Below, one piece after another: positions 19,975-64,000 of a stretch of DNA of 64,000 nt. The stretch spans positions 68,324,001 to 68,388,000 of the forward strand of contig JBNRSN020000010.1 in the NCBI GenBank assembly GCA_051313645.2. Reading direction: 5' to 3'. This stretch comes from Centroscyllium fabricii (taxonomy: Eukaryota). Under the pieces are notes generated by a model. That model was given only the letters and a program-made list of their open reading frames with translations, was not told where the DNA came from and ran no database searches. The translations under genes and the position numbers were made by a program. The stretch's first letter is position 1. Every line of letters starts with the position of its first letter.

Positions 19975-22239
19975 TCACCTGGACAGAGCATCCGGGGGTT
20001 CGTTGAGTTTGCCTGGACGGTAAAGAATGTTGTACTCGTAAGTCGAGAGTTCGATCCGCCACCGCAGGATCTTATCATTCTTGATCTTACCCCGTTGTTT
20101 ATTATTAAACATAAACGCCACCGACCGTTGGTCGGTGAGCAGGGTAAAATGCTTACCAGCCAGGTAATGATGCCAGTAGCGCACTGCCTCCACGATGGCC
20201 TGGGCCTCCTTTTCCACCGCTGAGTGGTGAGTTTCGGGTCCCTGTAGGGTCCGGGAGAAAAATGCTACGGGCCTGCCTGCCTGGTTCAGGGTGGCGGCAA
20301 GGGCGAAATCCGAAGCGTCACTCTCCACCTGGAAAGGGATGGACTCATCAACAGCGTGCATGGTCGCCTTGATGATGTCTTCCTTAATCCAAGCGAATGC
20401 CGTTTGGGCTTCTTCCGAGAGGGGGAAGATGTCGGCCTTATCCGTGTACTGGGGGACACATTGCGCGTAATAAGAAAAGAACCCTAGACATCTCCTCAGG
20501 GCTTTGGTGTTGTGAGGTAAGGGCAGCTCTTGCAAGGGGCGCATACGCTGTGGGTCGGGGCCGAGGACCCCGTTTTCCACCACGTATCCGAGGATAGCGA
20601 GCCGATCTGTACTAAAGACACACTTGTCTTTATTGTACGTGAGGTCCAGCCGTTTCGCCGTGTGCAGGAATTTGGCGAGGTTGGCATCGTGGTCCTGCTG
20701 GTCATGGCTGCAGATGGTCACGTTGTCCAAGTAGGGGAAGGTGGCCTGCAACCCGTTCTGGTCAACCATGCGGTCCATCTCCCTCTGGAACACTGACACC
20801 CCGTTGGTCACACCGAAGGGGACCTGGAGGAAGTGGTAGAGCCGGCCGTTCGCCTCGAAGGCGGTGTACTGGCGGTCGGCTTTCCGGATGGGGAGTTGGT
20901 GATACGCCGACTTGAGGTCGATTGTGGAAACGACCTTGTACTGGGTGATCTGGTTTACCATATCCGAGATGCGGGGGAGGGGGGAGGCGTCGAGCCCGGT
21001 GTAGCGGTTAATCGTCTGGCTATAGTCGATGACCATGCGCAGTTTCTCGCCCGTCTTAACCACTACGACCTGGGCCCGCCAGGGGCTGGTGCTGGCCTCA
21101 ATGATCCCTTCTTTCAGCATGCGCTTGACCTCCGACCTGATAAACGCCCGGTCCCCTGCACTGTAACACCGACTTTTGGTAGCAATGGGCTTGCATTTGG
21201 GGTCGAGATTGGTGAACAGTGAGGGGGAGTCGACTTTTAATGTGGACAGGCCGCAAGTCGAGCTCCGCTTTAAGTTGGGATTGTCCCGCCTACTGACGGT
21301 GAGGGGGGCCAGGGTTCCACCAAAATCCATCATCACGCTCTTCAGATGGCACTGGAAATCGAGTCCCAGTAAGACTGGGGCGCACAGCTGCTGGAGTACG
21401 TACAACTTAAAGTTGTGGTAAATGCAGTCCCTGATCGTGAGCGTGACGCTGCAGTAGCCGGTAAAGTCCGCCGTGTGGGACTTTGAGGCAAGGGAGACTT
21501 GGTAGTGTGTGGGCTGGGTCTGCAGTGCGTAGCGCCGCACTGTGTCGGGATGAATAAAGCTCTCTGCGCTACCGGTGTCGAACAGGCAGTTAGTGACGTG
21601 CCCGTCCACCTTAATCCCCATCATGAAGTTGGACAAGGTGTGCGGCCTAGCCTGATCGACGGTGGCTGAGGCCGAAGTGTATGTGTGTGAGTGGGGGCCC
21701 TCCGCTAGCTGGTGACCCGGCCGGGGCAGTTTGCAAGACGGCCGCTCAGAAGATGGCGGCGCTGGCGATGCGCCTGTGTCCGGCTGCTGTGGACAAGATG
21801 GCGGCGCCCGTGGTTCGCTCGCAGGTGACCGCTGTGGATAAGATGGCGGCACCCATGGTTCGCACACGGCCGACCGCAGTGGACAAGATGGCGGTGCCAG
21901 GGGTTCGCATATGGCCGGCCGCTGTCGATAAGATGGCGGCGCCGGGGGGTCGCATATGGCCGGTCGCAGTCGGGTTTGGAGTGGCTGCGCCTGTGCCGTG
22001 CGCACGGCAGGCCTCCGCCGTATAGTTAAAGGGGATTGAGGCGCCTGCGATTTACCCCTGGCTGACCGCTGCTGGGTCGCGCAGCAACACCGTACCTGGA
22101 GCCATGGAGTGGCATCACTGTTCTCACAGGTCGCACTGTTGGGTCTGGAGGTGGAGGCTGGGATGGACTTGCACACCTTCGCGTAGTGCCCCTTATTCGC
22201 GCACCGCTCGCAGGTCGCATTCCTCGCAGGGCACTGCAC
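19975..22239 (-). CDS. Gag C-terminus, protease, RT and RNase H of family A (largest open segment)
   Basis: CERCANKGHYAKVC knuckle, LFDTGS, IDLKSAYHQL, PFGVTNG, YLDN and ESDASD. Confidence 0.85.
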   Translation of the reverse strand: MQCPARNATCERCANKGHYAKVCKSIPASTSRPNSATCENSDATPWLQVRCCCATQQRSARGKSQAPQSPLTIRRRPAVRTAQAQPLQTRLRPAICDPPAPPSYRQRPAICEPLAPPSCPLRSAVCEPWVPPSYPQRSPASEPRAPPSCPQQPDTGASPAPPSSERPSCKLPRPGHQLAEGPHSHTYTSASATVDQARPHTLSNFMMGIKVDGHVTNCLFDTGSAESFIHPDTVRRYALQTQPTHYQVSLASKSHTADFTGYCSVTLTIRDCIYHNFKLYVLQQLCAPVLLGLDFQCHLKSVMMDFGGTLAPLTVSRRDNPNLKRSSTCGLSTLKVDSPSLFTNLDPKCKPIATKSRCYSAGDRAFIRSEVKRMLKEGIIEASTSPWRAQVVVVKTGEKLRMVIDYSQTINRYTGLDASPLPRISDMVNQITQYKVVSTIDLKSAYHQLPIRKADRQYTAFEANGRLYHFLQVPFGVTNGVSVFQREMDRMVDQNGLQATFPYLDNVTICSHDQQDHDANLAKFLHTAKRLDLTYNKDKCVFSTDRLAILGYVVENGVLGPDPQRMRPLQELPLPHNTKALRRCLGFFSYYAQCVPQYTDKADIFPLSEEAQTAFAWIKEDIIKATMHAVDESIPFQVESDASDFALAATLNQAGRPVAFFSRTLQGPETHHSAVEKEAQAIVEAVRYWHHYLAGKHFTLLTDQRSVAFMFNNKQRGKIKNDKILRWRIELSTYEYNILYRPGKLNEPPDALSR
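21745..21965. repeat. 45-bp coding tandem repeat (5 units), each containing AAGATGGCGG (YY1-type motif)
   Basis: AAGATGGCGG recurs at 21750, 21795, 21840, 21885 and 21930. Confidence 0.85.
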
Positions 22240-24885
22240 CCGCGGGTGCTTCCCTTGGGCTCAGAAGTAGCATCTGTGTCCCGCCGGTGTCTTCGCAGCC
22301 GCCGCTGCCATCGTGGGGGTCTCGGCCAGTCGCTGTGTCACCCAGGGTTCAGGGATATCGTGTGGGCCGTGGTCTCCGTACGCCTCCAGCTTTCGGAGCG
22401 CTCCGTCCACCGCATTAGAAAGAGTTATTGCGGACTTGAACGACAGTGTGTCCTGCTCCAGCAGCCGCTGGCGGGCCTGGCTGGACCTGAGTCCAGCTAC
22501 ATAGGCATCCCGGATTAGGAGGTTCACTTCAGGCCCGTGCGAGGGCTTGAAGCGCTAGTAGGAACTGTTCGTTAGACTCACCGAGTCATTGTCTTCTGGT
22601 CGCCAGAACATGCCTGGCATAGACCGAGTGAGCCGGGCGCATGTAGCAGTCCTTTAGTTTCTGAACCGCTTCCCCGTACATCTTGAGGCCGCGGATAAAG
22701 GAATATATCCGGCCGCTGATCCGTGATGAGAGTACCTGGAGTTTGTCCTCATCACGCGTAGCCTTTACGGCCTTCATGTAGGCCTCGACCAGGCCGAACC
22801 AATGTTCGAAGTTGTTAGCAGCATCGGGTGCCTGAGTATTGATGTCGAGGCGATCCGGTTTCACTGCGTTACTCTCCATGTTTTAAAATTAAGTGAATAA
22901 AATTGACGTATCGTCAATCAAATGCAAAAGACGAGTAGTTACCCAAACTATAGGCTTTTATTCACTTACAATGGAGCTAGTCTCCTGTCGAGTTCAAGGC
23001 GAGAGTGAGCGGGGGCAGGGCAGCCCTCACCTATATGCTCCAACCTGAGGGGAGGAGTTAGGGGTGTGGCTGACCTGACCTAGCATACAATGTCAAGGTG
23101 AACACATCAATATATACACTGGTAATACACGGTTACCACAGTCTTCAGCACTGCAGTGGAGCTGGGAGGTGGGCTCCTGCTTCTCCTGGCTCTATATTCC
23201 GGTAAGATTTTTTTTTTAAAAGGCACTTTTATCGTGCCCGTCTCCAGCAGTCTTTTTAAAAACCACGGATTAGGCCGCATGTAGACCATGTTTTCCTGAA
23301 CACAGCTGGCCAATTTTGCAAAAGGGACCTCAAACAGGTTTATTTGTATATGCAAAGGGCCTAATGCTTGTTTCAGATGTGGGGCCTGGACGTCTCTTTT
23401 TCTACCTTTACCAATGTGCACTTGCTGCCTGCCAGTTTGGATGCTTTACAGCCCATTTTACAGCATTTTATGCGTGTAAGTATCAAAGATATGGCAATTT
23501 GAAGTGGGTGCTCTTTGGTTTATGGAAATCATACCTAATTGCAGTATGCCATGATTCACGACTACAGGATATTTATATACAACTTCAAAACGTTAAAGCA
23601 GATTTTCTATAAGACCATTTAATGATCTAAATCATAGCAACACATTTTACTTTTAGATCTGCTGAAACATTAAAATGCGCATTTCAGAACATTAATCAAA
23701 AAGTAGCATTGTAAGAAACATCCAATGGTGAATAAAGGCAGATAATCGTTTCTATAAGACATTGTTGAATGTTGTCTGTGGTATATATACACACTGAACC
23801 TGTGTGAATACACTTCATAACATCTGCTAGTACTCTGCAGTATATTTATTTTTTGTAACGATTAGAATTATGAGAACATCATACTGTAATAAAAGCAGTT
23901 TTATGAATCTTAAGGGATGCAAATTTGAAATATTGCATCACCTGTTTATCCACAGTTTAACTAAAAATGCTGGCACGTGTCTCTTAGCAGTGTCATTTTG
24001 GGAAAAAATAAACTTTTAGTGCCATTCCAATTTATTGCTTTAAAAGAAATATCCAATTTCTCTCTTCAGTTTCCCACAGGAGCCAAGTTCCAGGAGGAAG
24101 ATTGCTTCAGCACGCCGGGGTAATGCCAGAATGACTAGGCGCCCACCTGTGGCGTTGCTCCGGGGAAGTTGGGAGTAATTGCAGTTTTCGGGCCAAGCAG
24201 GGTGAGAGGACACAGAGAGATGATTGGAGCCAGGTGGGGGTTAAAGGGAGGGGTTGGATGGGAGGGGAATGGGGGAAAATAGACAGGGGATAGGGAGAGG
24301 CAGGCTGGGGAAGGGGGATGAAAGTGGAATAGGAGAGGGGGCAGTGGGAGCAGGAGCAAGTGGAGGAGAAGGGTAATGAGGGAAGGGATGAGGCAGGTGG
24401 AGGAAAGCTGGAAAAAACAAAGGGTTGGGGGAGGGGCAGTTATTACCCTTCCCTCACCCAAGCCTGGATCTTCTTGTCTATGTGGGTGAAGGTGGGGGGG
24501 CGGGTGATGATAGGCGCCTTCCATTCTCCTTGTCCTGCATTTATGCTGAGTGGGGTGTGACTGAATTATCTTCTAACGAGGGGAGAGGTCACTTGACATT
24601 CCTCTCTAGTCAAGAATTCTTTCTCATTTGGGAGAAGGGTGAGTGTACTCCCCGTAATCACAGGTCGGACTCAGCAGTGAGGGAAGGCGCATAAGGGAGG
24701 GAGGTGGACATTCTCACCTGAGCCATGGGCACGGCTTTGTGCTTGCTGGGGGGCGGGGAGGAAGGTATTCACATTTGAGGCCATAATTTGTGCTCAGTGA
24801 GGGTGTGTATGTGTGGGAAGGCTTCACTGTAGTCCCAGCAGGACTTTGTGCTGAGAGGAGGAAAGCATGAGTGAGTTCAGTGATG

Positions 24886-32794: not shown

Positions 32795-34046
32795 TGCGAC
32801 GGTTTACTGCAACCTGCCTCATCCAGGAACTGCCCCTAAATAAGTTGACTTCCTATTTCACCGCGCTGCTCTAAACAGTCATTGATCCAATGGTCAGAAG
32901 TTATTCTATATTGAACTAGGCTATATATCCCTTCTATAAGAACAGGGTTCTTTCAGTAAGTCACTGATTTCTATCCGACTTAGGGTCTGTAGGTTAAAAC
33001 CGTAAGAAGAACCTGCTATGGTCCTGAATCGAGATGAGTGCTTAGTGCCGAATGCGGTCTATTTTGCTAACTTAAAAGTATTTGAATCAAGACTGGTTGT
33101 TGGATATAAATGGTTCAAGAGATCTTGAATTATTTATTTTCTTTTAACATTTGCATTTTAGTTCGGTCATATATATATTTAGATTGTTACAAGGTTATAC
33201 TTTATCACAGAAAATAATGTAATAATTAATAACAGTAGTACAGCAAACCAACATAAAAGTTTTTCATCTCACCAACGTCAGGTGCTTTTCGGATTGGAAG
33301 CTAAACCATCGATCAAACAACAAGCCTGTATGTTTGAGAGGAAAGCTGCATTCACTCGAACTCTGGAAACAGCTTAGAAGCTGGAGTCAATTCGATCGAT
33401 CGATTTGACTAGCTATTTAGCTGGAGCCAGCCTGATCTTGATGGCTGACTAACTTTCTGTCTGAATTGGGCTGCTTTTTATACACATAAATTGCTGAATT
33501 GCAATACGTCATGCCCCCTATCTGTGGGGGGGGGGGGTCAGTTAGACACGTGGTCAATTTTTAACTTCTTTATAATATATATTTCTTTACCTTTCAAAAA
33601 CTAACTGACCTTTTGGTCATGGATTACTTCGGCCATTTTCTTAACAAGGTGTTTCCTGTTTTTGTTACAATGATATCTAAAAATTGTTAGGTCAGATCAT
33701 CACTTTCTGGGAACTGGACTTTGTGGTCAGTTGTTTTTCATACTGCGATCCTTAGGAGATAGGCCAGACTTTTCATAATGAAACTCCAGTATCCTGCCTT
33801 TCCATCTCTCAAAATAGTTCTAATCTTGTGGTCAAGCTTTCTACGCCTTCAGAGACCCACCATCTGCTCTCAAAAGGGAACTTTAGGCAATTATCATTCA
33901 AGTTAATTTGACAGGCTTTCATTCTGCATTCTAAGCAGTTTGTTTCTTTAAAAAGACATTCTAAATCAGCCCTTTTTTTCTACAAAGTTTGGAAAGTACA
34001 TTTAATCAATCTTATAGCTGCGAGAAATTAAACAATTACCGCCACA
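32795..34046 (-). repeat. 3' LTR of the foamy provirus (1252 bp)
   Basis: Near-identical to 47366-48624 (about 10 substitutions by eye plus a poly-G length difference). Preceded on the minus strand by the purine tract GAGGGGGG. AATAAA at 33133-33138 (minus). Confidence 0.96.
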
Positions 34047-34514: not shown

Positions 34515-36272
34515 TTACTGGCATTGTCCGGTATCTCCACTATGATTCCATTCGTCATAATATTCATCATCAGCTTCATCTTCCGATATTGATTCCAACA
34601 TGGCTAATCGTAACCACAAGGGTGTTGATGTAGAACCTCCAGTGGGGTACATAGTCATGTATTCTTCCTTTGTGAAGATATCTTCTCCTCCGTTAGCTTC
34701 ATCTCCATCTTCCTCTGAGTTTTCATAGGAAGTGTCAAATTCTTCTTTCTTCCAGTAGTATTTTTCTCGATTAGTTGTTTCCTGAGTATTTTCCCAGGTG
34801 GGAATCCAGGAAGGGTAAAAACATTCTTCCATCTCTACTTCTTCTCCGAGAGATTTCTGTTTAGTTTGTCTTTCTTCTTTCCATTTGTTAAATGGGGTTG
34901 TGATATAGGCTCCTTCTGCCCACCATATGTTTTTCAATGGTTCTTCTCTATCTTTAGAGTATCCTGTGACTCTGTTCTTTTCTTCATCTGTTAGGTCTAC
35001 ACTTTCCCATGTAGCCATTGTTATTCGATTTTTTCCTTGTCGACTCATTTCTAATTCAAAGTGATTTCTGAAGGTGTGGCTTGGTTCATTATCTTTTTCA
35101 GGACAGGGTATGTCTGTATTTATATCTTGTACCAATTTTGTCATGCCTGCTGTCAGCGGTATTGTCCATTTTTCTGGTTCATCACACAACCATTTTAAGG
35201 TTGTCAGTAGCTGAGGGTTTAATCCATGGCAATATTCCAGGGGTCTGCCTCTTTCTAGAGGTCCCAATAGGCTGAGAAATAGGGCCATTTGTTGTCCTTT
35301 TCTTTCTTCCATTATGGTAAATACTTCTCCTGCACAAGTGTGTTTTTCTCCTTCGCTTAAATCTTTTTCTTCTTCTACTGAAGCGGTTATCATAGCAAAT
35401 GATGGCCAGCATATAATATTGGGCCAAAAATGTTCTGGTTTAAGGAATATTTCTCTAATTCCTTTACATATGTCTGTCCATGTAAAACCTGTTTGTAGGT
35501 TATTATTTCTTCCCCAGATTAGTTGGCATAGTGATTTTAGTTGGTCATTTTTCCATTCTTCTATTTCTTTATCCAGTACTCCTGTTTTCGGAGCGCGTTT
35601 TGTAAAATTACTTTTTGCGTGGCTGCTGTCCCAATGATCTAGTGTATAGATTATTTTTATTCTTAAGATTATTCCTGCCTTCTTTCCTATCCTCTTACAT
35701 TTGTTGCAGCACGGTGTTTGGTTTTTGTTTGAGGTATAGCATAAGACACATTGATTTGCGTGTCCTGTTTCGTGGTATTTTATGCATACAGTTCCTGGTA
35801 CCTCCTGATTCATTGTCCACATGGTACGGGTATAGATCATTCTACATCCTCGAGCCTCGGTGATTATTTGTCTCATTAGGCCATGTTTTGCAAAAGGTAC
35901 TGTTAATGTTTCAGGAGTTGATTTTCTAGTCATTAAAGTGACTATAGTAGTTATGGGTTTATCATTGTCTATTGGTTCTTGCCATTCTGCATCTATGAAG
36001 GCCGGGTTGTGTTCTTTTTGATTATTTCTTACAACCGTGTTATCGGTTTCCTCAGTTCGGGTGAGCCATCCCTCCTTGGTCCATCCTCCTGAGGGTAGGG
36101 TGGTGGAGCGGTTGGTCCCTGAATCTGATGTACTTGTTTCAGTTTGGGATTTTTCGCTTTCCCGGTTACCAGGTAGATAACTCCTTCTACTTCCAGAAGG
36201 CCTGGTAGTTCCTGATCGTTGTTGAAGTGAGGGGAACGAGTGAAGGCTATAGCTGAGCTGCAGGTGGGACAT
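34515..36272 (-). CDS. Accessory ORF, 585 aa, Cys/His cluster and acidic C-terminus (candidate transactivator/Bet-like)
   Basis: Long open frame in viral sense with CIKYHETGHANQCVLC...CCNKC and an acidic-aromatic tail. Confidence 0.85.
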   Translation of the reverse strand: MSHLQLSYSLHSFPSLQQRSGTTRPSGSRRSYLPGNRESEKSQTETSTSDSGTNRSTTLPSGGWTKEGWLTRTEETDNTVVRNNQKEHNPAFIDAEWQEPIDNDKPITTIVTLMTRKSTPETLTVPFAKHGLMRQIITEARGCRMIYTRTMWTMNQEVPGTVCIKYHETGHANQCVLCYTSNKNQTPCCNKCKRIGKKAGIILRIKIIYTLDHWDSSHAKSNFTKRAPKTGVLDKEIEEWKNDQLKSLCQLIWGRNNNLQTGFTWTDICKGIREIFLKPEHFWPNIICWPSFAMITASVEEEKDLSEGEKHTCAGEVFTIMEERKGQQMALFLSLLGPLERGRPLEYCHGLNPQLLTTLKWLCDEPEKWTIPLTAGMTKLVQDINTDIPCPEKDNEPSHTFRNHFELEMSRQGKNRITMATWESVDLTDEEKNRVTGYSKDREEPLKNIWWAEGAYITTPFNKWKEERQTKQKSLGEEVEMEECFYPSWIPTWENTQETTNREKYYWKKEEFDTSYENSEEDGDEANGGEDIFTKEEYMTMYPTGGSTSTPLWLRLAMLESISEDEADDEYYDEWNHSGDTGQCQ

Positions 36273-37039
36273 TTTTCCGAAGTTTTTGGCGCTTTCACTC
36301 GAGGTGGGACTACGATTTTTTCAGCCGATAAGGTTTTTAAATAAAATCTAATAAAGTATAATATAAAAATACCAAGTGAAATTGTACATACTAGTCTTCC
36401 TGGTATAGTCCTTTCCCATCCTAGGAACAAAAGTCCTAAGATGTATATTCCTATCACGGCTTGTAATATGGCATTATACCTAGGTCGGTTTTCTTTATTA
36501 TGTAACATTAAAAACTTTTGTTTGTTACAGTAGGACTTGTAAGCCAGGTTTATCAATATCCATGTAAAAAACATAGCCGTGGGTATCCCATAGTCTAAGT
36601 ATTTCTTTGCTTCTGTTTCCATAAGCCACAAACTTTGTGATGTTACAGTAACTAGGCAAATTACGAGGGATATGATAAACTGCCATCTTCCTAAGAAGGT
36701 ATCTGTTTGTGTTTTATATTGTCCGTATGAGAATTGATAACTGAGGGTAATCATAAAAGGAAAGGCTGCATGATATCCTGCTTGAGTCCAGTTATGAATA
36801 TGGTTGTGGTTTCTAACAGCGGTTGTTAGGTTTTGTAGGGTTTCTCCCCCCTCACCACTGTTATAAGCCACAAATGCCTCTAAAGCAGTCAAAATACAAA
36901 GCGGTAGTGCCATCATAACGTAATATGGGCCTCCCGATTTTCTTAGTCGTTTAAATTTTAGCCTGAGCACTACGATGATTATGACCATGATAAATAATGT
37001 GTAATTAACGACACATCCCCAGTATCCTTTGATTCCCAT
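36029..37039 (-). CDS. Accessory ORF, 336 aa, predicted seven-pass membrane protein with PTAPPPY tail motif
   Basis: Seven hydrophobic segments in aa ~5-232 and a polar tail with CPTC and PTAPPPY (36095-36115). Confidence 0.85.
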   Translation of the reverse strand: MGIKGYWGCVVNYTLFIMVIIIVVLRLKFKRLRKSGGPYYVMMALPLCILTALEAFVAYNSGEGGETLQNLTTAVRNHNHIHNWTQAGYHAAFPFMITLSYQFSYGQYKTQTDTFLGRWQFIISLVICLVTVTSQSLWLMETEAKKYLDYGIPTAMFFTWILINLAYKSYCNKQKFLMLHNKENRPRYNAILQAVIGIYILGLLFLGWERTIPGRLVCTISLGIFILYFIRFYLKTLSAEKIVVPPRVKAPKTSEKCPTCSSAIAFTRSPHFNNDQELPGLLEVEGVIYLVTGKAKNPKLKQVHQIQGPTAPPPYPQEDGPRRDGSPELRKPITRL

Positions 37040-37077
37040 CGTCTGTTGTTCCTATAATGATAAAAATAAGTTTTATT

Positions 37078-37554
37078 TTACAGATTCAATAAATCGTCCA
37101 ATGTAGGAGCATAAGAAGGTTCATATGTGAACTCTTGATTCCATTCAAAGGTGAAATTCACAGGTTCTGATATGAATTTTTCTTCTATTTTGTTTCGGTA
37201 CTTCTGGTTCTTTACATTGAACTTTTTCCAGTTTATTTGCCCCTTGGTTAATGCAAGAGGTGGTTTCTGAGGTGGAAACAGTGTTTTCCATTAGCATTCT
37301 TTTTGGTGAGACCCACGTCATCAAATTTGGGCTAAATTTTGCAGTATTGAGTGGGATCCCATCAAAGGTTTGATAAGTGCCGGAAATCCGGTTTTTTCAC
37401 TTATTTGAAAGTCAAAAGCTTGTGATTTTGATAATGTTGATGCGGCCAATTGATACATAATGATTTCATTTCTTTATTCAGGGTGTTGGTCAATTTCCTT
37501 TAGGGCTTGTTTTTGACATGTGTCACTGAATTGGTGATTTCTGAGCGAATTCAT
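37078..37554 (-). pseudogene. Decayed 158-codon accessory ORF immediately after env
   Basis: The ATG overlaps the env stop (ATGA). One frame runs to TAA at 37078 with four internal stops and ends APTLDDLLNL (hand-translated). Confidence 0.55.
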
Positions 37555-38855
37555 TTTCTTCGGCACAGAAGTGGTTGAAGGATTTTAATGGCCACCAATC
37601 CACCTATAGCGAACAAGCCATATTTTAAATATGATCCAAAACCCATGAAGTCGTTAAAGGAACTCATTATTCCGCCGAACATTGATCCAAAGAAGCCAAA
37701 TATGCCTGAGAAGGCATCCCCCATAGCGGGTAATATGTCTCCCAGAGCTTCTCCTAACGCATTAAAAACGTCTGCTATTTGTGCACCATATGAGGTGTCT
37801 ATCTCATTTAGGTGTGTTCTTAGGTTATTGATTTGTTCCTTAATGTTCCAATTGGTATAGGTGACTATTAATGTTGTTTTTCTTGTGGCTGCTAATACGT
37901 CAGCTAATTTTGAGATCATGATATTGATATCATAATCAATTTCTGGTATTATTGTAATGGTGTTTTTACCTAATTGAGGGTATAGTGTTTTACCACAGCA
38001 TTTAGCTTTAGTACTAGGGGTAACCATCCAGGTACCTATTCCCATTTGACAGCTATCATTACATGTTTTAATTGTCGAGATCATATATGATCCGTTATTT
38101 AATGAAGTGATTTGATCATAATCCTTGTCTATAGGGATCATTTGGACAGGACATGCTCTGCGTGAGCAGGGTTCAATTTTATCCCATTCGTAGAGCATAT
38201 TCCCTTGGCGTTCTGTTCTAATAATTCCTTTGTACGGGTACATGTTTCCTGATTCATTGAAGGCTATGGTGTAATCATGTTTAATTTTCTGTTTATAACA
38301 TGATTTACCAGTACAGTAAGGTACTCCGTGGTTGATCATGGTGTAGGTTATGTTGTTCATTGTATCCTCCGTAATCATTGGGATGGATATTATAATTTGT
38401 AGTTCTACGGTAATGGCATAGTATATTTGGGTACCTCGTTCGGTGACTGGTTCAACTATAACTATGTTCATTAACCGACAATTTGCCATGATAATTTGGG
38501 TGCTACTGATGTATTGATATTGACTTAATACGTCCCTTGGTATCCAGTCTATTTCCGGAATTCCCAATCTCATTGCATCTTCTGTTTTTTGTATAATAGT
38601 ATCTATGATTTTATCCTGGTTGGCCGTATTAACTAAATTTAGAGCTTCTATGATTTGTTCTAGGCCCATAATATGGGTTTCGTGTAGGGCGAGAGAAAAT
38701 GCAGTTAAATTTTGTTGATTAGTAGTTAGATCGTTTACCCATTCTCCTAGGTCACTTAATATGTCAGTAGACATTTGTTGTCCCTTTTTTAAATTTTCTG
38801 GGACATTTCCCGTTGTTAAAGTTATTATTGCTAAGAGGAGAAGGACGATCAACAT
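37551..38855 (-). CDS. env: Env TM (fusion) subunit encoded as a separate ORF with its own signal peptide
   Basis: MLIVLLLLAIITLTTG leader, heptad-like region, IDW motif, Cys-rich ectodomain, amphipathic membrane-proximal region, C-terminal anchor and short basic tail CRRK. Confidence 0.85.
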   Translation of the reverse strand: MLIVLLLLAIITLTTGNVPENLKKGQQMSTDILSDLGEWVNDLTTNQQNLTAFSLALHETHIMGLEQIIEALNLVNTANQDKIIDTIIQKTEDAMRLGIPEIDWIPRDVLSQYQYISSTQIIMANCRLMNIVIVEPVTERGTQIYYAITVELQIIISIPMITEDTMNNITYTMINHGVPYCTGKSCYKQKIKHDYTIAFNESGNMYPYKGIIRTERQGNMLYEWDKIEPCSRRACPVQMIPIDKDYDQITSLNNGSYMISTIKTCNDSCQMGIGTWMVTPSTKAKCCGKTLYPQLGKNTITIIPEIDYDINIMISKLADVLAATRKTTLIVTYTNWNIKEQINNLRTHLNEIDTSYGAQIADVFNALGEALGDILPAMGDAFSGIFGFFGSMFGGIMSSFNDFMGFGSYLKYGLFAIGGLVAIKILQPLLCRRK

Positions 38856-38867
38856 GTTACCTTATTC

Positions 38868-40544
38868 CTAAATTACAGTAGTATTTATGAAGGTCCACTG
38901 AAGAGCCGGCGTTAGGTCGAAGAACGTCAGTTTTTCTGGCTCCCGGTCTATCTCGCTGCACCTTAGTGCTGTGCCAAAATGACAGGAAATATAGTGAGTT
39001 AAATTATCGCCTATATCTACTTTGGTCAGTTTATTTGTTTCTTTTGGTACTTTGAATACCCATTTTATCTCTGATTCCCAGTTTTCAATGCTGGCTTTAA
39101 TTTGTTCTATTGTGGGTTTAGATTTGTCTTTGTTTAGAGTTTCATTTCTCATTATGTTCCACACTGAGTGCCAAGTAGCTTGTGTTAATTTTCCAGTTTC
39201 TATTTTGTTAAAGTTTTTGTTAAGAGGTCCTACTCCCTCCTTTGCCCTATATATTTTCCATGGAAATTCGATTATATTTTTAGTCTGTCCTCTGGCATTC
39301 GTAATATTTGTACTACATTTTCCGTATCCTGTTTCATTTTTACAGGTGACTTGTCCCCAGGTTTTTTTGCTGTTATTTTTTAACATCGTGTAGTAGGGTC
39401 TCATACAGAATTCAGGGGGATCTGAGTTTCGGAAGAAATTTCTACCAATAGGCTGTTTTAGCTTGGTTTTTAGGTCTTCTATGGGTCTGATACTTTTATC
39501 AAACCATCTGCCGTAGTTTCGGTTATCACATATCATATGCCATCCTTGCTCAATTTTTGGGATGGTGTATGTTATATTTCCAACGTTTTTGGTTAGAAAT
39601 GTTTCGGCCGGGGAGAAGAAAACCCTTTTGGAATTAGTATAACTGCAATTACATCGACTACTTTTACTTTCGCAACTTGTAGTCTGTTGGCACCATAATT
39701 TTTGTTGGTTTATGAGCCATAATGACTGGTGATGGGTTCCTTCATCTCCCATATTATCATTCTGGTAAGGCCATGCACAATGGTCCATCCTCACAGACTG
39801 AGGTTGTCGGGTAGTTTTTACAAAGGTAATTAAGCAGTGTAGGTATTTATTTATATCTTCTCTTTCTTCCTTAAATTGTGGTAATTTAATCTGAGGAGAT
39901 AACTTCATGATCCTGTCAGAAAATTCTTGTAATTTTCGTCTAACCATTATCCGGGGAGTTCCTGCTTTAAGATTCATCATATTAATGATTATTCCTGAGT
40001 CCAAGACTATTTTTAAAGGGACTAATACTTGTCCCTGGTCACGGTAAATAGGCTTGGGTTCCTTTTTCCAGCAGATACCATTTTTTATTGGTCTAACTTG
40101 ACACAAAGGGTGATTGTTATTATTGTTATTATTTGTGTCATTTTCTAGTGCTGACTGTGTCATAGGTCGGCAGGATTGGTTTAATGTCCCTGCTACTGCC
40201 GATACTAGTATTATTCCGATAAGGAATAGAAAAAGTATGGTAAGTAGCAGTACCGTGAAACATTTTTCACATCGTCCCATATTTTTATGGGTCTGTTCTT
40301 TTCTGGCGCAGTTAGTGATGTTAATTTTCACCTCTTCTTTTGGTCGATTGTTTTGACCTTTCATTTTATTAAATTTATTCTGTAGGGGTTTCTTATTTAT
40401 TATTACTTTTCTCCTTTTTTGTAATCTATTCCTTATGTGTCTAAAAGGATCTATTAGTGATTCTAATTCGATAGTGGTCTGGTAATGATTTGGTTCCGCA
40501 GGGATCTGGTCTTCCTCCAGGCGGTTCATCCAATCGCGACTCAT
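38868..40544 (-). CDS. env: Env leader peptide plus SU subunit (type II membrane topology)
   Basis: ~95-aa cytoplasmic N-terminus, hydrophobic anchor and many N-glycosylation sequons. Foamy SU-like blocks IKNGICWKKEPKPI, DHCAWP and HYISC. Confidence 0.88.
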   Translation of the reverse strand: MSRDWMNRLEEDQIPAEPNHYQTTIELESLIDPFRHIRNRLQKRRKVIINKKPLQNKFNKMKGQNNRPKEEVKINITNCARKEQTHKNMGRCEKCFTVLLLTILFLFLIGIILVSAVAGTLNQSCRPMTQSALENDTNNNNNNNHPLCQVRPIKNGICWKKEPKPIYRDQGQVLVPLKIVLDSGIIINMMNLKAGTPRIMVRRKLQEFSDRIMKLSPQIKLPQFKEEREDINKYLHCLITFVKTTRQPQSVRMDHCAWPYQNDNMGDEGTHHQSLWLINQQKLWCQQTTSCESKSSRCNCSYTNSKRVFFSPAETFLTKNVGNITYTIPKIEQGWHMICDNRNYGRWFDKSIRPIEDLKTKLKQPIGRNFFRNSDPPEFCMRPYYTMLKNNSKKTWGQVTCKNETGYGKCSTNITNARGQTKNIIEFPWKIYRAKEGVGPLNKNFNKIETGKLTQATWHSVWNIMRNETLNKDKSKPTIEQIKASIENWESEIKWVFKVPKETNKLTKVDIGDNLTHYISCHFGTALRCSEIDREPEKLTFFDLTPALQWTFINTTVI

Positions 40545-40788
40545 CGTCTTAGGGAGCTTTAAATCCTTTTGATACTGGTCTACAGTTATCTATCGATATA
40601 GTTCTGCTTGCGCCGGAATCAAGTCCTATGGTCACTGTGCGTTCTCCAACAGAGGTGACCTGTTGAGGAAGGCGAAATCTTGTTTTAAGTGCTTTTCCGG
40701 CTTTGTGAGACTTTTTCTCCTGTATAAAATCCCCTACCTGGGGTTGCCAGTGTTTAAAAGTGTTATTCTTTACTGCCTCCTGCGCCCT

Positions 40789-41310
40789 TTCTTCTGATAT
40801 TTTTGACATCATGTCTCTTAATTCGTCTCTTAAATCGGTATCATACAAACTATTTGGATTACTTAGTTTTGTATGAAGTTGTATCCCAAATTGTAAAAAG
40901 TAGGGGGTAATATGTTTCTCTGGTCCTAAGACATTCAGGGGAGTATTATTTCTTCTGATATTTTAGTCATCATATCCCTTAGTTCCTCCCGTAAATCGGT
41001 ATAGGGTACTGGGGTTACTTAATATTCAAGGGAGTTTTATTTCTTCTGATATTTTAATCATCATATCCCATAGTTCCTCCCGTAAATCGGTATAGGGTAC
41101 TGGGGTTACTTAATTTTATATTTAACTGAAACCCATATTGTAAATAATACGAGGTCCTAAGATATTTTAAATTTATATTATATTTAACTGAACACCATAT
41201 TGTAAATAATACGGGGTCCTAAGATATTTTAAATTTATATTATATTTAACTGAACACCATATTGTAAATAATACGGGGTCCTAAGATATTCAAGGGAGCT
41301 TTGTTAATTG
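40789..41310. repeat. Complex tandem duplications inside integrase (62-bp unit ~3x; ~73-bp block 2x plus a diverged third copy)
   Basis: CCATATTGTAAATAATACG(G/A)GGTCCTAAGATATT occurs three times at 62-bp spacing. TTCTTCTGATATTTTA...GGGGTTACTTAAT occurs at ~40950 and ~41041. Confidence 0.9.
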
Positions 41311-43978
41311 CCAGCTGTACATCACTCGACAGTTTAGCCCACTATGCTCCGCGTACGGTGCACATCTTAGATATGGCCATTTTGGCATCTTGATTTTTCC
41401 TTTCTACCATACCACTTAATTGTGGATGTAAAGGGGTGCTGAATTCCAATTTTATGCCCCGTAAATTGACAGAACTCGAGAAAGACGCCAGAAGTAAATG
41501 CAGGGCCTTAATCGGAATGAATTATCACGGGTGGTCCAGCACCTGTAAGAGCCATGTTGACGGCTTAAATAGCATCAGTGCTTAGTACAGCTTTTTGTGG
41601 GCCCTAACTGTGTTTTAGGAGGTGCAGACATCAACAATAACCAAGACATATACGTTTATTCGACTGTAAGGGGGGTTTCCTTTTGAAGGCGGCAATGATC
41701 CAATAAAGTCTATTTGCCATTTTATTCCAGGTTGGTCAGGTTTAATTTGTACTATATGAGGCGGTCTAATTATGCCAGCCCCTTTAGTAAATTGTAGGCA
41801 GATTTGACAATTAGTGACATAAGCCTTACATTCTTCCAATCAGAATTGCCACCAGTATTTTTACATTAAATGGGATGCAGTAGTCTTACACCCCCATGGG
41901 TTGCTCCTGTCCCTGTATGAGCTTCTTTAATTAGGCTTTGTCTGTCTTTTTCAGGCAGTATTATTTTACATTTATAATCCGGTTCTCCTGCCTTTTTAAC
42001 CAATATGTCTCCGTTATTTCCCACTGAATATACATAGTATGAAGGATATCCCTTAGGATAAATTCCTTTAATGAGTTCTTTTTGAGTGTTATCTTGTTTT
42101 GCTGTAACAGTTGCTCTTGTAACAATGCAAATTTTTAATTATCTCAATCCAATGGTAGAGTCTAGTGCCTTTTTGGCAGCCAGATCTGCTAGTCCATCTC
42201 CATAAGCATGTATTCCTGTTTTCTGATGTGCAGGTACATGTTTAACCATTAAATTTGGCATATTTCTTATAAATTGATCTATTTTTCTCCACCATTTTAC
42301 GTGGAGTATAGGTTTCCCTCTATGATCCTTGAAACCATTATCCGTCCAGTCTGTAAGCAATTCACTACAGCCTCTATGGCAATAGAGGCTGTCGGTACAT
42401 AGTAATATTGCTTTTTATTTCTATCCTGGGGGTAACTCCCTTTAAAGCTCTATATATGGCTATTACTTCGGCCATTTGAGCGGAGTGTTTTTCCCCTACA
42501 TAATATAATTCAGTATGGATAGGTATAAAACCATCCGGGGACCAATGTCCTTTAACAATACCGGCTCCATCTGATAATATGGCTGCTTGGGCTGATCCAT
42601 CAGCATATATTGCTAAGTTGAATTCATCTTCAGGCTTAGTCTCTCCCTTGTCTTTTTGTTTTGAGCTTGCAAACTCGGGTAGGTTCCAACTAACTACTGG
42701 TGTATTGGCGTCTTTGCACCATTTAATGGGGGTATCTATTTTAACGATATCCCATTTATCATATCTGGCCCTATGTACTTTGTGATCCCTCTTGATGCTG
42801 TCCCTGCTGTAATTTAGTTCAGGTAGGTTAGTATATACATATATACTGCCGTTTCCTTGATACTTACTAATATGTATCAGTCCGTTTGTTAACAGAGTAA
42901 GAGTTTCTTCTAGTTTTTGAAACTTTTGTTCTGTCCTGCTAAAATTCATTGAATAATACTGAAAAGTGGTACTCACTATTTCAATGTGAGGGGTTTTCTT
43001 TCCCTCAGTTTCTCTTTAAATTCTGAAGTCAATCCTCTTCCTTGATCTGTTATTTCTACTCCTAAAAAGGTTACTGTACTTTTGGCTATAGTTGATTTTT
43101 TCAACGTTACTTTATATCCGGTATTCATTAGAATTTCTAGGATTTTGTGTAGAACTATAAAGTGTTCCTCTAGGCCAGTAGTAGATATGTATATATCATC
43201 TACATGAGTATTCTTGCCTTAAGGGGGCTAATACTTTTAATACTTCTGAGGAGAAAATTTGCGGTGAATTAACATATCCTTGGGGTAATCTTGTCCAGCA
43301 ATATTGTTTTCCTTCTGGAGAAGTAATTGCTGTGTATTTGTAATCATTCTCATGTATGGGGTGACTCCAAAATCCATTGGCTAGGTCAAGAGTAGTTTTA
43401 TATTTTTTCCTTTCAAGTTGTAAAGTTTGAGTGGTCAGATTCAGAAAGGCTCCTTTGTACGATACCGAAGCTTCGTTTAGAGCTCGATAATCACAGACGA
43501 GTCTAAATATTCCTGCTTCTTTCTTTTTTACCCCTATTATCGGGGTATTGAACTCTGATGATTTTTCTATCAGAACACCTTGTTTTTCTAGATCTTTAAT
43601 TATTTCCGTAACCGCCCTTCTGGCTTCTTTTTTGTGTATTATATATTGTGGGGGTACAGTGAATCTGTTCATTCCCGTCGGATCAGGGGTTTTTTGATGG
43701 AGAAATCCACAGTGATTTCTATGTTTTTGCCATACTTCCCAGTGTGTCTGTACTAAGTTTTTGATTCTTGCTCTTACTGTTGGATTTGTTTCAGTATCCA
43801 TTTGGATCTGTAGGTGTTCTGATCGGTCATCAGGGTTTTTAATCAATAACCCGTATCTATTGATCTCTGATATTCCTAATACCATTTTTACATCTAGTTC
43901 TTGTTCTATATTTGGTATTCCAGCGGCCCAACATTGAAATGTGGTGCCGTTGTCTAATTGCACTGATACTTTGTAGGT

Positions 43979-45240
43979 CCAGGGTGGCATCCCCGCCACC
44001 CTGGACCAATACCAGTTCGCCTACCGGGGGAACAGATCTACAGAGGATGCTATCACTACGGCTCTTCACTCTGCACTAAACCACCTGGATAGCAAAGATA
44101 CATATATCAGAATGCTGTTTATTGACTACAGCTCAGCATTCAACACCATCGTCCCCAGCAAATTGTCTACCAAACTCCTCACCCTCGGCCTGAACACCTC
44201 CCTCTGCAACTGGACCCTGGACTTCCTAACCAACAGACCACAGTCTGTGAAGTTAGGCAACCTCACCTCCCCCCCCCTTACCCTGAACACGGGGGCCCCA
44301 CAAGGTTGTGTGCTCAGCCCCCTCCTCTACTCCCTCTTCACTCACGACTGTGCGGCTGTCCATGGCTCCAACACGATCATCAAGTTCGCGGATGACACCA
44401 CGGTGGTTGGCCAGATCACCAACAACGACGAGTCAGCCTACAGGGATGAGATCCAGCACCTTGTGGGTTGGTGTGCCGACAACAACCTGGCACTGAACAC
44501 CAAGAAAACGAAGGAGATCATAGTGGACTTCCGGAGGACTGGAAGCAGAAGACACACACCCATCTTCATCCAAGGGGCTGAGGTGGAAAGGGTGTCCAGC
44601 TTCAAGTTCCTCGGGGTCCACATCTCGGAAGATCTCTCCTGGTCACTAAACACCTCCTCTCTGGTTAAGAAGGCCCAACAGCGCCTGTACTTCCTTAGGA
44701 AGCTGAAGAAAGCCAGGCTGTCATCCGGCATCCTCTCCAACTTCTACCGCTGCACAATAGAAAGCATACTGACAAGCTGCATCACTGTCTGGTATGGTAA
44801 TTGCACTATCTCGGGCCGGAAAACCCTGCAGCGGGTAGTCAAAACTGCCCAACGAATTACCGGTACACAGCTACCGTCAGTGGAAAGCATCTACCTCAAA
44901 CGCTGCTTACGGAGGTCTATGAACATTATAAAAGACCCCACACACCCCAGCCACAGTCTGTTCGCCCCTCTGCCCTCCGGGAGACGCTACAGAGCAATTT
45001 GCACCCGCACGACTAGATTTCAGAACAGCTTCTTCCCCAGGGCTGTCAGCCTCCTGAACTCTAAAAAGAAACTCCGGTACCTGCACGCCTGATAATGAAC
45101 TTTACTGTATGCAATTTATTTATGTAATTTATTTATTTTGTCTACACTACTCTCGGGAGAGTTGAGTCTTCGTCTCGTTGTATTGTACTAGTACTCTGCA
45201 ATGACAATAAAACTTGAATTGAATTGAATTGAATTGAATT
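43979..45240 (+). mobile_element. 5'-truncated Rex1/Babar-type LINE inserted antisense into the viral protease
   Basis: RT motifs [22 protein letters not shown] and KFADDT, AATAAA and a (TGAAT)n tail. Removing it restores the protease frame VVDTYKVSV. Confidence 0.9.
44112..45092 (+). CDS. Rex1-type reverse transcriptase C-terminal part
   Basis: [22 protein letters not shown] and [10 protein letters not shown]. Confidence 0.85.
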
Positions 45241-47084
45241 GTATCTACTACCATTGTTTGTCCGGAGAAGCCTTTTATTTTTAATTGTTCCCCTTTTTTA
45301 CATTCTAATCTTTTGGCGAGGTCTTCATCAATGGCTGAGCCCTCTGCACCGGTATCTATTAGAGTTTGGGCCCAAAACCAATCTTTGTTTCTTCCAGTGA
45401 CCTGGGTCTTTATATATGGAAATTGATTTTCTTCTGACTCATGATGTCCCGAGGGAGGGTTGGGTGTGGCATTTCTGATCATTCTGAATTGTCTTGGGGC
45501 CTGATTATTTCCTTGTCCTCTGTTTCCTCCCCCTCTGCCTCTGCTATTTCCTCTACCCCTAGGTGGCTGTCCACCTCGAGTAGATTGGGTAGGTCCTTGA
45601 TTTCGACCTTGGTTTCCTTGGTAATTTGTTCCTTGCCTCCAGTCTCCCCCCTCATATCTAGCTCCCTGGTATGAGGTCTGAGCCTGGCCCTGGGAATTTC
45701 GGTCCCTGAAATTATAGTTTCTATTTTGATAATTTTGATTTCGTTGGAAACTCTGGGCTGGGGGCTCCGAGGCTCCGGTGGGAGTCGGGGTTCCTTGATA
45801 TCGTTGGACTCTAGGCTGGTCATTTTGATAGTTTCTTTGAGGGGCTCTAGTTGGGGGGGTGGCATCAGGTTGAACCCATCTGGGCGTATATCTCTGATCT
45901 GCCTGTGGTCTAGGCGGTCCTTGTCCTCGCACTCGGGCTCTGCCTCTAGGTGCGGGAGGTCGTGGACCCGTAGGTGCTACACCGGTCCCATATTCTCCTG
46001 TTTCTCCTCCTATTCTTGCTTTTTGTCCTACTTCTCTCGTAGGTACTGTGTATAGGCCAGCAATTCCATTAACACTGTCTGCCAATGTTATCCAAGGATT
46101 TACTCCTAGGCCTCTATCACGGATATCTGCTCTAATCATATTTTCATGTGTCCCATTATTCAATGATCTGAATACAGTATTCTTAGCTTTGTCCCAATCT
46201 AGACCTAGGGCGCCAGCTGTTTCTGCCACTGCCACTAAATCTCCACAATGTTTTATCAGATTTTTTATTATAATGTTAGTGGCTGCCTCTAAGCCTTGTC
46301 CGTATATATTCTGGTGAGCTTGTGCTAGCATTGTTAGGAAATTACCGCAATGGTGTATCTCCATTTTGAAACATGCCAGTCCGGTGGCTTTCATCATATC
46401 GCATCTTTCCTGATTTGTCAGGTTTCTCAAAAAGACACTAATCTGTTCAAAGTGGTTCAAACCATATTTTATAGCTTCCTTATCTTGTTTTGGAAAATCC
46501 GGGAATGTAGTATGGAATGATTGTACGGTAGTTTTACCATATATCGACCATGGGTCTTGTCTACGGCCTGCTCTTGCGGGACGCTCGGCAAGCCACTCGG
46601 CTTGTTCGTGGCCTGCTTGGGCTATAGCCGTAGCTGCTGTCCTTTGGTTATTTGCGGGTATTAATGTCAGACGATGGGGGGTTACTCTCTTTATCTTAGC
46701 TGGGTCTCGTGGGAAGGCATATGTAGTCATTCCGGGGCACAGAGGGTGTTCTGAAGGACGTAATTCTGATTCTAATCTTTCTATTATGCACATGTGTATT
46801 GGATTCTGAACATTTCCAGAGGGTCCAGGTCCATTTGCCCTATCATCGGGTACTTCACAATCATAATCATGCTCTGTCTCGTTGTCATAAATTATCCTTA
46901 ACGTAAACCTGACTCCTGCTGCTATTGCTCCATTATTCCTTCTATCTAATACATCGTACAGGGATTCATCTCTTGCAGCTCTTTCTACCCCGCCTCTTAA
47001 TGCTACGGGGAAATTATCTCCATAAGCAAGGGCTTGGGGTTGTACATTGGGTCTCCAGTGTTCTCCTGGAGGATCATAGGCCAT
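45241..47084 (-). CDS. gag: Foamy Gag, reading in frame into protease
   Basis: No zinc knuckle. C-terminal Gly/Arg boxes (RGRGNSRGRGGG) and YNFRDR, resembling the foamy chromatin-binding YxLRxR motif. No stop before LIDTGA. Confidence 0.9.
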
Positions 47085-47365: not shown

Positions 47366-48624
47366 TGCGATGGTTTACTGCAACCTGCCTCATCCAGGAA
47401 CTGCCCCTAAATAAGTTGACTTCCTATTTCACTGCGCTGCTCTAAACAGTCATTGATCCAATGGTCAGAAGTTATTCTATATTGAACTAGGCTATATATC
47501 CCTTCTATAAGAACAGGGTTCTTTCAGTAAGTCACTGATTTCTATCCGACTTAGGGTCTGTAGGTTAAAACCGTAAGAAGAACCTGCTATGGTCCTGAAT
47601 CGAGATGAGTGCTTAGTGCCGAATGCGGTCTATTTTGCTAACTTAAAAGTACTTGAGTCAAGACTGGTTGTTGGATATAAATGGTTCAAGAGATCTTGAA
47701 TTATTTATTTTCTTTTAACATTTGCATTTTAGTTTGGTCATATATATATTTAGATTGTTACAAGGTTATACTTTATCACAGAAAATAATGTAATAATTAA
47801 AAACAGTAGTACAGCAAACCAACATAAAGGTTTTTCATCTCACCAATGTCAGGTGCTTTTCGGATTGGAAGCTAAACCATCGATCAAACAACAAGCCTGT
47901 ATGTTTGAGAGGAAAGCTGCATTCACTCGAACTCTGGAAACAGCTTAGAAGCTGGAGTCAATTCGATCGATCGATTTGACTAGCTATTTAGCCGGAGCCA
48001 GCCCGATCTTGATGGCTGACTAACTTTCTGTCTGAATTGGGCTGCTTTTTATACACATAAATTGCTGAATTGCAATACGTCATGCCCCCTATCTGTGTGG
48101 GGGGGGGGGGGGTGGTCAGTTAGACACGTGGTCAATTTTTAACTTCTTTATAATATATATTTCTTTACCTTTCAAAAACTAACTGACCTTTTGGTCATGG
48201 ATTACTTCGGCCATTTTCTTAACAAGGTGTTTCCTGTTTTTGTTACAATGATATCTAAAAATTGTTAGGTCAGATCATCACTTTCTGGGAACTGGACTTT
48301 GTGGTCAGTTGTTTTTCATACTGCGATCCTTAGGAGATAGGCCAGACTTTTCATAATGAAACTCCAGTATCCTGCCTTTCCATCTCTCAAAATAGTTCTA
48401 ATCTTGTGGTCAAGCTTTCTACGCCTTCAGAGACCCACCATCTGCTCTCAAAAGGGAACTTTAGGCAATTATCATTCAAGTTAATTTGACAGGCTTTCAT
48501 TCTGCATTCTAAGCAGTTTGTTTCTTTAAAAAGACATTCTAAATCAGCCCTTTTTTTCTACAAAGTTTGGAAAGTACATTTAATCAATCTTATAGCTGCG
48601 AGAAATTAAACAATTACCGCCACA
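47366..48624 (-). repeat. 5' LTR of the foamy provirus (1259 bp)
   Basis: Matches 32795-34046 and abuts the PBS and TSD. Confidence 0.96.
48046..48053 (-). promoter_or_regulatory. LTR TATA box (TATAAAAA)
   Basis: TATAAAAAGCAGCCC about 570 bp into the LTR, upstream of a GGTGAG donor (47839-47844) and AATAAA. Confidence 0.7.
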
Positions 48625-62800: not shown

Positions 62801-64000
62801 CTCTTGGCCACCGTAGCACACGGGCCCACAGCCACGGAGGTCCGCTGCGACGTCTCCCTCCCGCAGCCCAGACCCGTCGTCCCCCACGCATGGAGGCGAC
62901 ACATCTTCCAGACCCTCCATGACCTGTCCCACCCCGGCGTCCGCGCGTCCACAAAGCTGATTTCTGCGCGTTTCGTTTGGCGCGGCCTGCGCAAGGATGT
63001 CCGCGCCTGGACCAACACCTGCAATGCCTGCCAGCGCGCCAAATTGCACAAGCACATCAAGGCGCCACTTGAAACGATCGCCATCCCAGCTAGACGCTTC
63101 AGCCACGTCCACCTTGACCTGGTCGGACCACTACCACCATCACGGGGACATACACATGTCATGACCATGGTCGACCGCAGCACCCGCTGGCCAGAAGCGG
63201 TCCCCCTCACCGCTACCACCACCGCGGACCTGGCCAGGGCCTTCATTGCCACCTGGGTCGCACGTTTCGGCGTCCCCACCGACATTACATCAGACAGGGG
63301 CCCCCAATTTACCTCAACCCTATGGGCAACCATCGCCCATGACCTCAGGGCAACCCTGCACTGAACCACCGCCTACCACCCACAGGCCAATGGCCTCTGC
63401 GAGAGGTTCCACCGCTCCATCAAAGCTTCCCTACGGGCCAGCCTTAAGGACGCAACCTGGACCGACCGCCTGCCCTGGGTAATGCTCGGCCTACGTTCAG
63501 CGGCCAAAGAAGACCTGCATGCCTCAGCGGCGGAACTCGTGTATGGCCAACCCCTAACCGTACCGGGCGAGTTCGTCGCGGAAACCAACGAACCCTGGTC
63601 AGCCGACCGCTGCCTCAAGGAGTTCAATAACCAGGCAGCGGCGTTCAAACCACTTCCGGTGGCCCGGCACAGAGAGCCAGCAGCACGTGTTCCTGATGGC
63701 ATCGAGAATGCCAAGTATGTGTTTGTCCGCCACGACGCACATCGAACACCACTACAGCCACCGTACGACGGACCGTACAGAGTGCTTCGGGCGGGACCTA
63801 AAACGTTCCAGATAAAAATGGGCAACAGAGCTGAGACTGTCTCAATCGACCGGCTCAAACCGGCACACATAATGGCGGGCGAGACAACAGTCCCCGCGCA
63901 GCCACCAAAACGCGGACGCCCTACCGCACCAAAACCCGCCCACACTCCCACGCAGAACAAGGAGCAGCGCACGACACGTGCTGGCCGCATCATCAGGCCA
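59819..64000 (+). mobile_element. CsRN1-clade Gypsy element (5' LTR ~59819-60095; runs off the window)
   Basis: PBS TGGTGACCTCGA (tRNA-Trp type) at 60097 and Gag CHCC motif CYYH-x9-C-x3-C. Confidence 0.88.
60194..64000 (+). CDS. CsRN1-type Gag-Pol; one nonsense codon at 63362-63364, integrase continues in frame
   Basis: CDTGA, WRPCGDYRRLN, IDLVRGYHQ, TDASD, HLDLVGPLP, SDRGPQF, then TTAYHPQANG after the stop. Confidence 0.88.

Follow-up and report, generated by a model that had tools for sequence, protein, structure and literature searches.

To our knowledge, the accessory proteins described from retroviruses are soluble, anchored by a lipid, or pass through the membrane once or twice. Nef is reported to use ExxxLL as a clathrin-adaptor (AP)-binding motif, and SERINC to be sent to lysosomes by Nef, S2, and glycoGag (PMC5735641); herpesvirus membrane proteins with a PPxY motif bind Itch, and U24 lowers surface CD3 (PMC5849660). 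In the foamy viruses, all non-primate Gag proteins are reported to lack P(S/T)AP (PMC3705266), and bovine foamy Gag uses the non-canonical PLPI and YGPL (PMC8952818). Here, we describe open reading frame (ORF) A, which lies behind env in a young, foamy-like provirus of Centroscyllium fabricii (assembly GCA_051313645.2, contig JBNRSN020000010.1, positions 68,324,001 to 68,388,000 of the forward strand; this 64,000-nt stretch is “the window”). ORF A is a real, selected, and previously unmatched protein, and a putative member of the viral NEDD4/ESCRT membrane adaptors: PPxY and P(S/T)AP stand together on a membrane protein, on the side that charge bias predicts to be cytosolic. The positions of all features are collected in Table 1.

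An earlier sequence-only reading had proposed an intact 336-aa frame with about seven hydrophobic helices, a polar tail of about 100 aa, and the motifs CPTC and PTAPPPY. This description stands, with a tail of 101 residues that is placed in the cytosol by both plausible topologies. “About seven” is a fair count: Kyte-Doolittle hydropathy averaged over 19 residues gives five strong peaks (8-27, 2.5; 39-59, 2.0; 118-139, 2.0; 189-207, 2.0; 215-234, 1.7), one moderate peak (150-167, 1.1), and a weak candidate at 86-105 that reaches only 0.5. At about 85-104, both AlphaFold2 models draw a helix, with low confidence. In a seven-pass model with the N-terminus outside, the inside has 18 lysines and arginines against 5 on the outside, both sequons (N70 and N83) are on the luminal side, and the tail faces the cytosol. 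If helix 3 is left out the division becomes 15 to 8, and the better orientation keeps the tail cytosolic while leaving the most basic loop outside. Given the charge bias and the two glycosylation sites, we favor seven passes with the predicted topology N-out/C-in.

The predicted luminal loop (60-85), which bears both sequons, also has three histidines; together with the start of helix 3 there is a histidine cluster at 78, 80, 82, and 90 (window 36770-36808, minus strand) that could bind metal or sense pH. In four copies of the gene, 21 or 42 nt are inserted in frame directly ahead of the CxxC pair (near window 36280), which suggests a tolerant linker. The ATG stands in a good context (-3 is A, +4 is G), and the acceptor-like pattern upstream of it recurs before the env transmembrane (TM) ORF and twice elsewhere on the sense strand.

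The tail combines four trafficking motifs within 60 residues: an acidic dileucine, PTAP and PPPY in overlap, and a T-R-L end that we take to fit the class I PDZ-binding pattern. It also holds ten lysines. Of the 55 covered copies, 51 have PTAPPPY without any change (12 of the 67 other copies have no coverage here), so the motif loss among relatives that could have undone the sequence-only reading is not what we find. Among 200,000 shuffles of the 101-residue tail, an overlapping P[ST]APPxY arose with a frequency of 5e-5, both motifs anywhere with 6e-4, and at least three of the four trafficking motifs with 1.7e-4.

A search of the source genome returned 927 candidate copies of the element, that is, hundreds of copies. 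The 120 that were scored, a sample biased by score, are 97-100% identical, and 116 have no internal stop. For an unbiased set, the accessory region was taken from all 67 other copies that could be located through gag (query window 45150-47084). ORF A is free of stops and frameshifts in 45 of the 56 copies that cover it, the window copy counted. These copies are young, with a median distance of 2.9%. Among the 12 checked copies with incomplete coverage, none showed a clean deletion of ORF A, and their gaps trace to an insertion or to where the fetched stretch ends; 5 of the 12 have one common insertion site and are probably duplicates.

Selection was measured on the 67-copy set by classing variants against the commonest codon of each column, with expected sites weighted by the spectrum of private mutations; what is counted is variant sites rather than events on a tree. 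The private changes of ORF A show neutrality (79 nonsynonymous, 30 synonymous, dN/dS 1.03, seven stops), as is expected after insertion. Changes common to at least four copies are purified (21 nonsynonymous, 34 synonymous, dN/dS 0.24, p=1.9e-7), in the membrane part (0.25, p=5e-5) and in the tail (0.23, p=0.001), and the two shifted frames give 0.93 and 2.38. The contrast between private and shared changes persists when near-identical copies are collapsed to 53 or 42 of 57 (Fisher p=0.0002 and 0.0013). Since shared changes are purified and private ones neutral, the protein mattered while the virus replicated: purifying selection acted on ORF A while the family spread, with no sign of later host co-option. 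The frame is thus not neutral. The sequence-only interpretation holds up in part: the data support a multipass accessory gene whose tail is of late-domain type and likely cytosolic, and the gene is real and selected.

ORF B runs with its first 81 codons through the DNA of the tail, an overlap that the earlier description did not include. Over codons 257-336, the ORF A frame has a dN/dS of 0.16 and the true third frame counts of nine nonsynonymous and two synonymous, while the ORF B frame in the overlap gives 0.73 (p=0.41); selection here acts on the frame of ORF A and not detectably on that of ORF B. For the shared variants of the neighbors, dN/dS is 0.30 in env TM, 0.39 in the env surface part (SU), 0.72 in ORF B, and 0.70 in ORF C. 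The protease has 4 nonsynonymous and 13 synonymous shared variants, and gag codons 1-350 (window 47084-46035) are not purified (56 and 20); selection on the capsid may be diversifying there.

What such a protein does can be proposed by analogy. Our first choice, held tentatively and at somewhat less than even confidence, is a virus gene for a seven-pass adaptor that would deliver partner membrane proteins to endosomes and lysosomes in the manner of Nef or UL56. We put it first because the motif set (ligase, clathrin adaptor, ESCRT-I, and scaffold) follows the logic of Nef, S2, glycoGag, and the herpesvirus PPxY proteins. The sequence-only reading had listed a receptor-downregulating adaptor among its options, and the dileucine and PDZ-type signals, which it had not included, make that option a somewhat better fit. 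In the proposed mechanism, a spliced mRNA would use the acceptor 12 nt upstream of the ATG, and the product would insert N-out/C-in with its first luminal loop glycosylated. The helix bundle would bind a host (or viral) membrane protein as cargo; PPPY would bring a NEDD4-family ligase that places ubiquitin on the cargo or on the ten tail lysines; ExxxLL would engage clathrin adaptors; PTAP would engage TSG101/ESCRT-I for sorting into multivesicular bodies; and T-R-L would dock a PDZ scaffold. The likely gain would be a producer cell cleared of a restriction factor, entry receptor, or immune protein, as with Nef, S2, and the herpesvirus proteins UL56 and U24.

Several points weigh against the adaptor. 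PTAP is not typical of the down-regulators cited, and the dileucine and PDZ matches, noticed after the fact, are weak singly (0.09 and 0.026 of tail shuffles). In copies so young, motif retention is expected without selection. The tail contrast weakens at the stricter collapse (p=0.006, then 0.067), and residues 296-336 alone show no significant selection at the motif stretch (0.27, p=0.15). Both structure models are of low confidence, with a predicted local distance difference test (pLDDT) score of 45 for the single sequence and 43 for residues 1-245 with 64 near-identical copies. In addition, the constraint on ORF A is about that on env TM and stronger than that on ORF B, ORF C, and gag 1-350, which suits a core role in replication better than an arms-race gene.

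That last point leads to the rival that survives best, namely that ORF A is a release factor, which we regard as possible although rather unlikely. The protein would gather at sites of Env/Gag budding and supply a late domain in trans, as does bluetongue virus NS3, a membrane protein whose PSAP and PPRY bridge particles to ESCRT (PMC7409164). In Ebola VP40, PTAP overlapping PPxY has been proven to act as a late domain (PMC8402826), and for budding with foamy Gag it is reported to be enough that trans-acting proteins carry ubiquitin (PMC2958808). The constraint on ORF A equals that on the fusion subunit, and the absence of a clean deletion among the 12 incompletely covered copies also fits. As the sequence-only reading had noted, Gag has no P(S/T)AP or PPxY: no P[ST]AP, PPxY, YPxnL, or FPIV-type motif occurs in any of 43 natural copies (the 30 best-scoring and 13 more diverged, of 68 found), and the env frames of the window have no canonical late domain except one YPQL in the TM ectodomain. 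However, Gag has proline-rich candidates of its own, PPAP in 43/43 copies and PTRAP in 42/43. Because non-primate foamy Gags bud without P(S/T)AP (PMC3705266) and the bovine one uses PLPI and YGPL (PMC8952818), a Gag without a canonical late domain does not require relocation, and the proposal of a budding adaptor “moved out of Gag” is weakened. A dileucine signal would also tend to take the protein off the surface, and a seven-helix bundle exceeds the needs of a tether. Release factor and adaptor are not mutually exclusive.

A bolder version, which we consider unlikely, spreads assembly over several membrane proteins: Env would be made as two chains, and a seven-pass protein, perhaps from a captured GPCR (G protein-coupled receptor)-like host gene, would carry the late domain missing from Gag and drive budding in trans. 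If true, this would be the first retrovirus with a late domain outside Gag, on a fourth structural gene.

The third option of the sequence-only reading, a captured host gene, fares worse. An ancient eukaryotic seven-transmembrane protein (GPR137/TOM1/PRRT3-like or GPCR-like) would serve as receptor, channel, or scaffold, with tail motifs that set its own turnover, as PY does in Epstein-Barr virus (EBV) LMP2A; we find this doubtful. What speaks for it is a sub-threshold lead from the Atlas language model, which points to the TOM1-3, GPR137_N, and PRRT3 clusters with all scores <0.9 and an overlap of 141-161 of 256 features, against 170 typical of true family members. There is no support at the level of sequence: ORF A has no match in Pfam (best E 0.089), among PDB sequences with a 64-copy profile, by phmmer over 1.84 billion representatives, or in a 5.8-billion-protein index covering proteins of 184-588 aa and, as weak evidence, 589-2000 aa. 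The blank in that index says little, since it is blind to this lineage: env TM is also unmatched there despite clear foamy Env relatives. The apparent absence of relatives is therefore soft. PF06454 matched neither the genome nor the controls and is uninformative. Five fold searches on the two models yielded nothing usable; the rows for rhodopsins and GPCRs stayed below threshold and differed between the models, and the rhodopsin ranking of one model was not reproduced by the other. As the sequence-only reading had said, DRY (or ERY) and NPxxY are absent from ORF A, as are CWxP and any match to the 7tm profile. CREST/PAQR hydrolases have SxxxH and a helix-7 HxxxH as metal motifs, and microbial rhodopsins have DxxxK with the retinal lysine in helix 7; ORF A has neither SxxxH nor DxxxK, and its sole HxxxH (78-82) lies in the loop predicted to be luminal. 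Where ORF A came from is a separate matter from what it does, and capture could hold with ORF A as adaptor or as release factor too.

Lastly, an incidental frame, open through the youth of the copies and with a motif that is a by-product of the overlapping ORF B, would fit the young copies and the dual-open region but is very improbable and, for the ORF, largely refuted, as shared variants are purified in the ORF A frame and in neither the ORF B overlap nor the shifted frames, and the motif has a chance of 5e-5.

Table 1. Features of the provirus in the window and of ORF A (positions are those of the window)
Feature	Position	Strand	Basis or remark
ORF A, orphan multipass accessory protein	36029..37039	-	Intact 336-aa frame, ATG to stop
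Predicted 7-helix membrane domain, residues 8-234	36338..37018	-	Hydropathy, charge bias, helices in both low-confidence models
Helix 3 of ORF A, weakly hydrophobic	36784-36725	-	Hydropathy
Splice-acceptor-like pyrimidine tract and AG, 12 nt upstream of ORF A ATG	37040..37070	-	Sequence pattern
CxxC (CPTC), residues 257-260, single pair	36260..36271	-	In 56/56 covered copies
ELPGLL, an acidic dileucine (ExxxLL) predicted to be a sorting signal for clathrin adaptors (AP)	36194..36211	-	56/56 copies
Overlapping PTAP and PPPY (PTAPPPY), residues 309-315, predicted TSG101 and NEDD4-family WW ligands	36095..36115	-	Exact in 51/55 copies
C-terminal T-R-L, class I PDZ-binding pattern	36032..36040	-	56/56 copies
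5' long terminal repeat (LTR)	47366..48624	-	Followed by tRNA-Lys-type primer site
gag-pro-pol	40549..47084	-	Broken into several frames; LINE-type insertion near 44000-45200 in window copy
env leader/surface part	38868..40544	-	By position and N-terminal membrane anchor; no database match; stop fixed in family
env TM subunit, separate ORF with own hydrophobic N-terminus	37551..38855	-	PF03408, 8ozh
ORF B, soluble, Cys-containing, acidic C-terminus, bel1/Tas-like position	34515..36272	-	Orphan; weakly constrained (0.72); overlaps ORF A tail
ORF C, two hydrophobic helices	34072..34476	-	Orphan; weakly constrained (0.70); often disrupted
3' LTR	32795..34046	-	Polypurine tract with GGGTG junction just before

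The provirus that carries ORF A is young, as its two LTRs differ at 10 of 1252 aligned bases (0.8%). In the sense direction it reads gag-pro-pol, env split over two ORFs, about 510 nt of spacer, and ORFs A, B, and C. It has long LTRs, a flanking 4-nt target duplication, a primer site that we assign to the tRNA-Lys type, and a Gag without a Cys-His box. By similarity ranking (no tree), its reverse transcriptase is closest to foamy Pol (Pr125Pol and 7ksf/7kse chains, E 5e-34 to 4e-32, vs. 5e-19 for the HIV enzyme). Env is of foamy type: the TM ORF matches PF03408 (E 3e-21, 75 bits, cut-off 27) and the 988-aa Env chain 8ozh (E 4e-10). Fish foamy-like endogenous retroviruses (ERVs) are described with the same Lys primer site, GGGTG at the polypurine tract/LTR junction, 4-nt duplication, long LTRs, and Gag without a Cys-His box (section 3.4 of PMC5210030). 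On the ranking, the foamy-type Env, the primer site, the GGGTG junction, and the duplication, we classify the provirus from its sequence as a foamy-like retrovirus. It departs from the strict mammalian Spumaretrovirinae in that gag-pro-pol shares one frame and Env has no furin site and two fixed in-frame stops, where the strict group makes a single Env precursor that furin cuts. In many copies, a frame of about 1740 aa runs open through gag, protease, and pol, uninterrupted by stops or frameshifts, whereas mammalian foamy viruses express Pol separately.

The env split (window 38845-38885, minus strand) consists of two in-frame stops and a following ATG in 65/65 copies. The TM ORF opens with a signal-peptide-like stretch and, as with ORF A, has an acceptor-like AG 12 nt ahead of its ATG. 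No RxK/RR furin site occurs in either env part, and purifying selection acts on both. SU and TM are likely made as separate chains, unlike foamy Env, a split arguably as surprising as ORF A itself. ORF C is open as in the window in 15/45 copies. One copy has a 146-codon frame in the spacer between env and ORF A, which we discarded, as frameshifting indels there are common to many copies and no frame is clearly selected.

The genome also holds a second, older foamy-like family, with copies about 87% alike and an integrase 30-47% identical to that of the window. It appears to stop about 2 kb past the integrase, seemingly without env; in 40 downstream stretches examined, no env or relative of ORF A was found. 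Elsewhere in the window, Gypsy-type LTR elements occur at 53601-58205, 18486-23143, and 60194-63364, one of which has a long open frame for pol and LTRs that are 99% identical; these are ordinary.

With a protein that is selected, passes the membrane seven times, and combines ESCRT, NEDD4, clathrin-adaptor, and PDZ-type signals, the retroviral toolkit would come to include an architecture known from herpesviruses and orbiviruses. The protein also bears on a question left open in PMC3705266: how a foamy virus gets to ESCRT when its Gag has no PSAP. Our literature search, with subscription papers and supplements outside it, found no multipass late-domain accessory protein described in a retrovirus; PMC8227577 and bioRxiv 2021.11.23.469661 added no further precedent. 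The only earlier retroviral example found of a hydrophobic ORF that weakly resembles a GPCR is Jaagsiekte sheep retrovirus orf-x (PMC2238898, PMC3185594). As described there, orf-x overlaps pol, resembles only part of a receptor, and is of doubtful function, whereas ORF A is free-standing, whole, and selected.

Among herpesvirus membrane proteins, EBV LMP2A has more membrane passes than the UL56 group. Both redirect NEDD4-family ligases through a cytosolic PPxY, as predicted for ORF A; the UL56 group (UL56, ORF0, UL42, U24) is tail-anchored, unlike ORF A, and neither the group nor LMP2A is described with a PTAP there (PMC5849660). Nef, S2 of equine infectious anemia virus, and glycoGag of murine leukemia virus remove host membrane proteins via AP-2, Nef with ExxxLL as in ORF A, but they are myristoylated or single-pass rather than seven-pass and have no late-domain pair (PMC5735641).

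Closest in position are the orphan ORFs after env in foamy-like ERVs of fish and amphibians (acc1/acc2, ORF-3 to -5; PMC5210030, PMC5512871, bioRxiv 2020.12.18.423569), some of which were purified before endogenization. For the teleost genes no TM motifs are reported to have been detected (PMC5210030), whereas ORF A is predicted to be multipass with a motif-rich tail; this comparison is one of published descriptions. Bluetongue virus NS3, like ORF A, is a viral membrane protein with P(S/T)AP (PSAP in NS3) and PPxY in its cytosolic part, and it is glycosylated; it differs in having two passes and separate N-terminal motifs and in belonging to a non-enveloped double-stranded RNA virus, and no homology was detected (PMC7409164). 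Ebola VP40 shares with ORF A the overlapping PTAP and PPxY, but carries them on a soluble matrix protein (PMC8402826).
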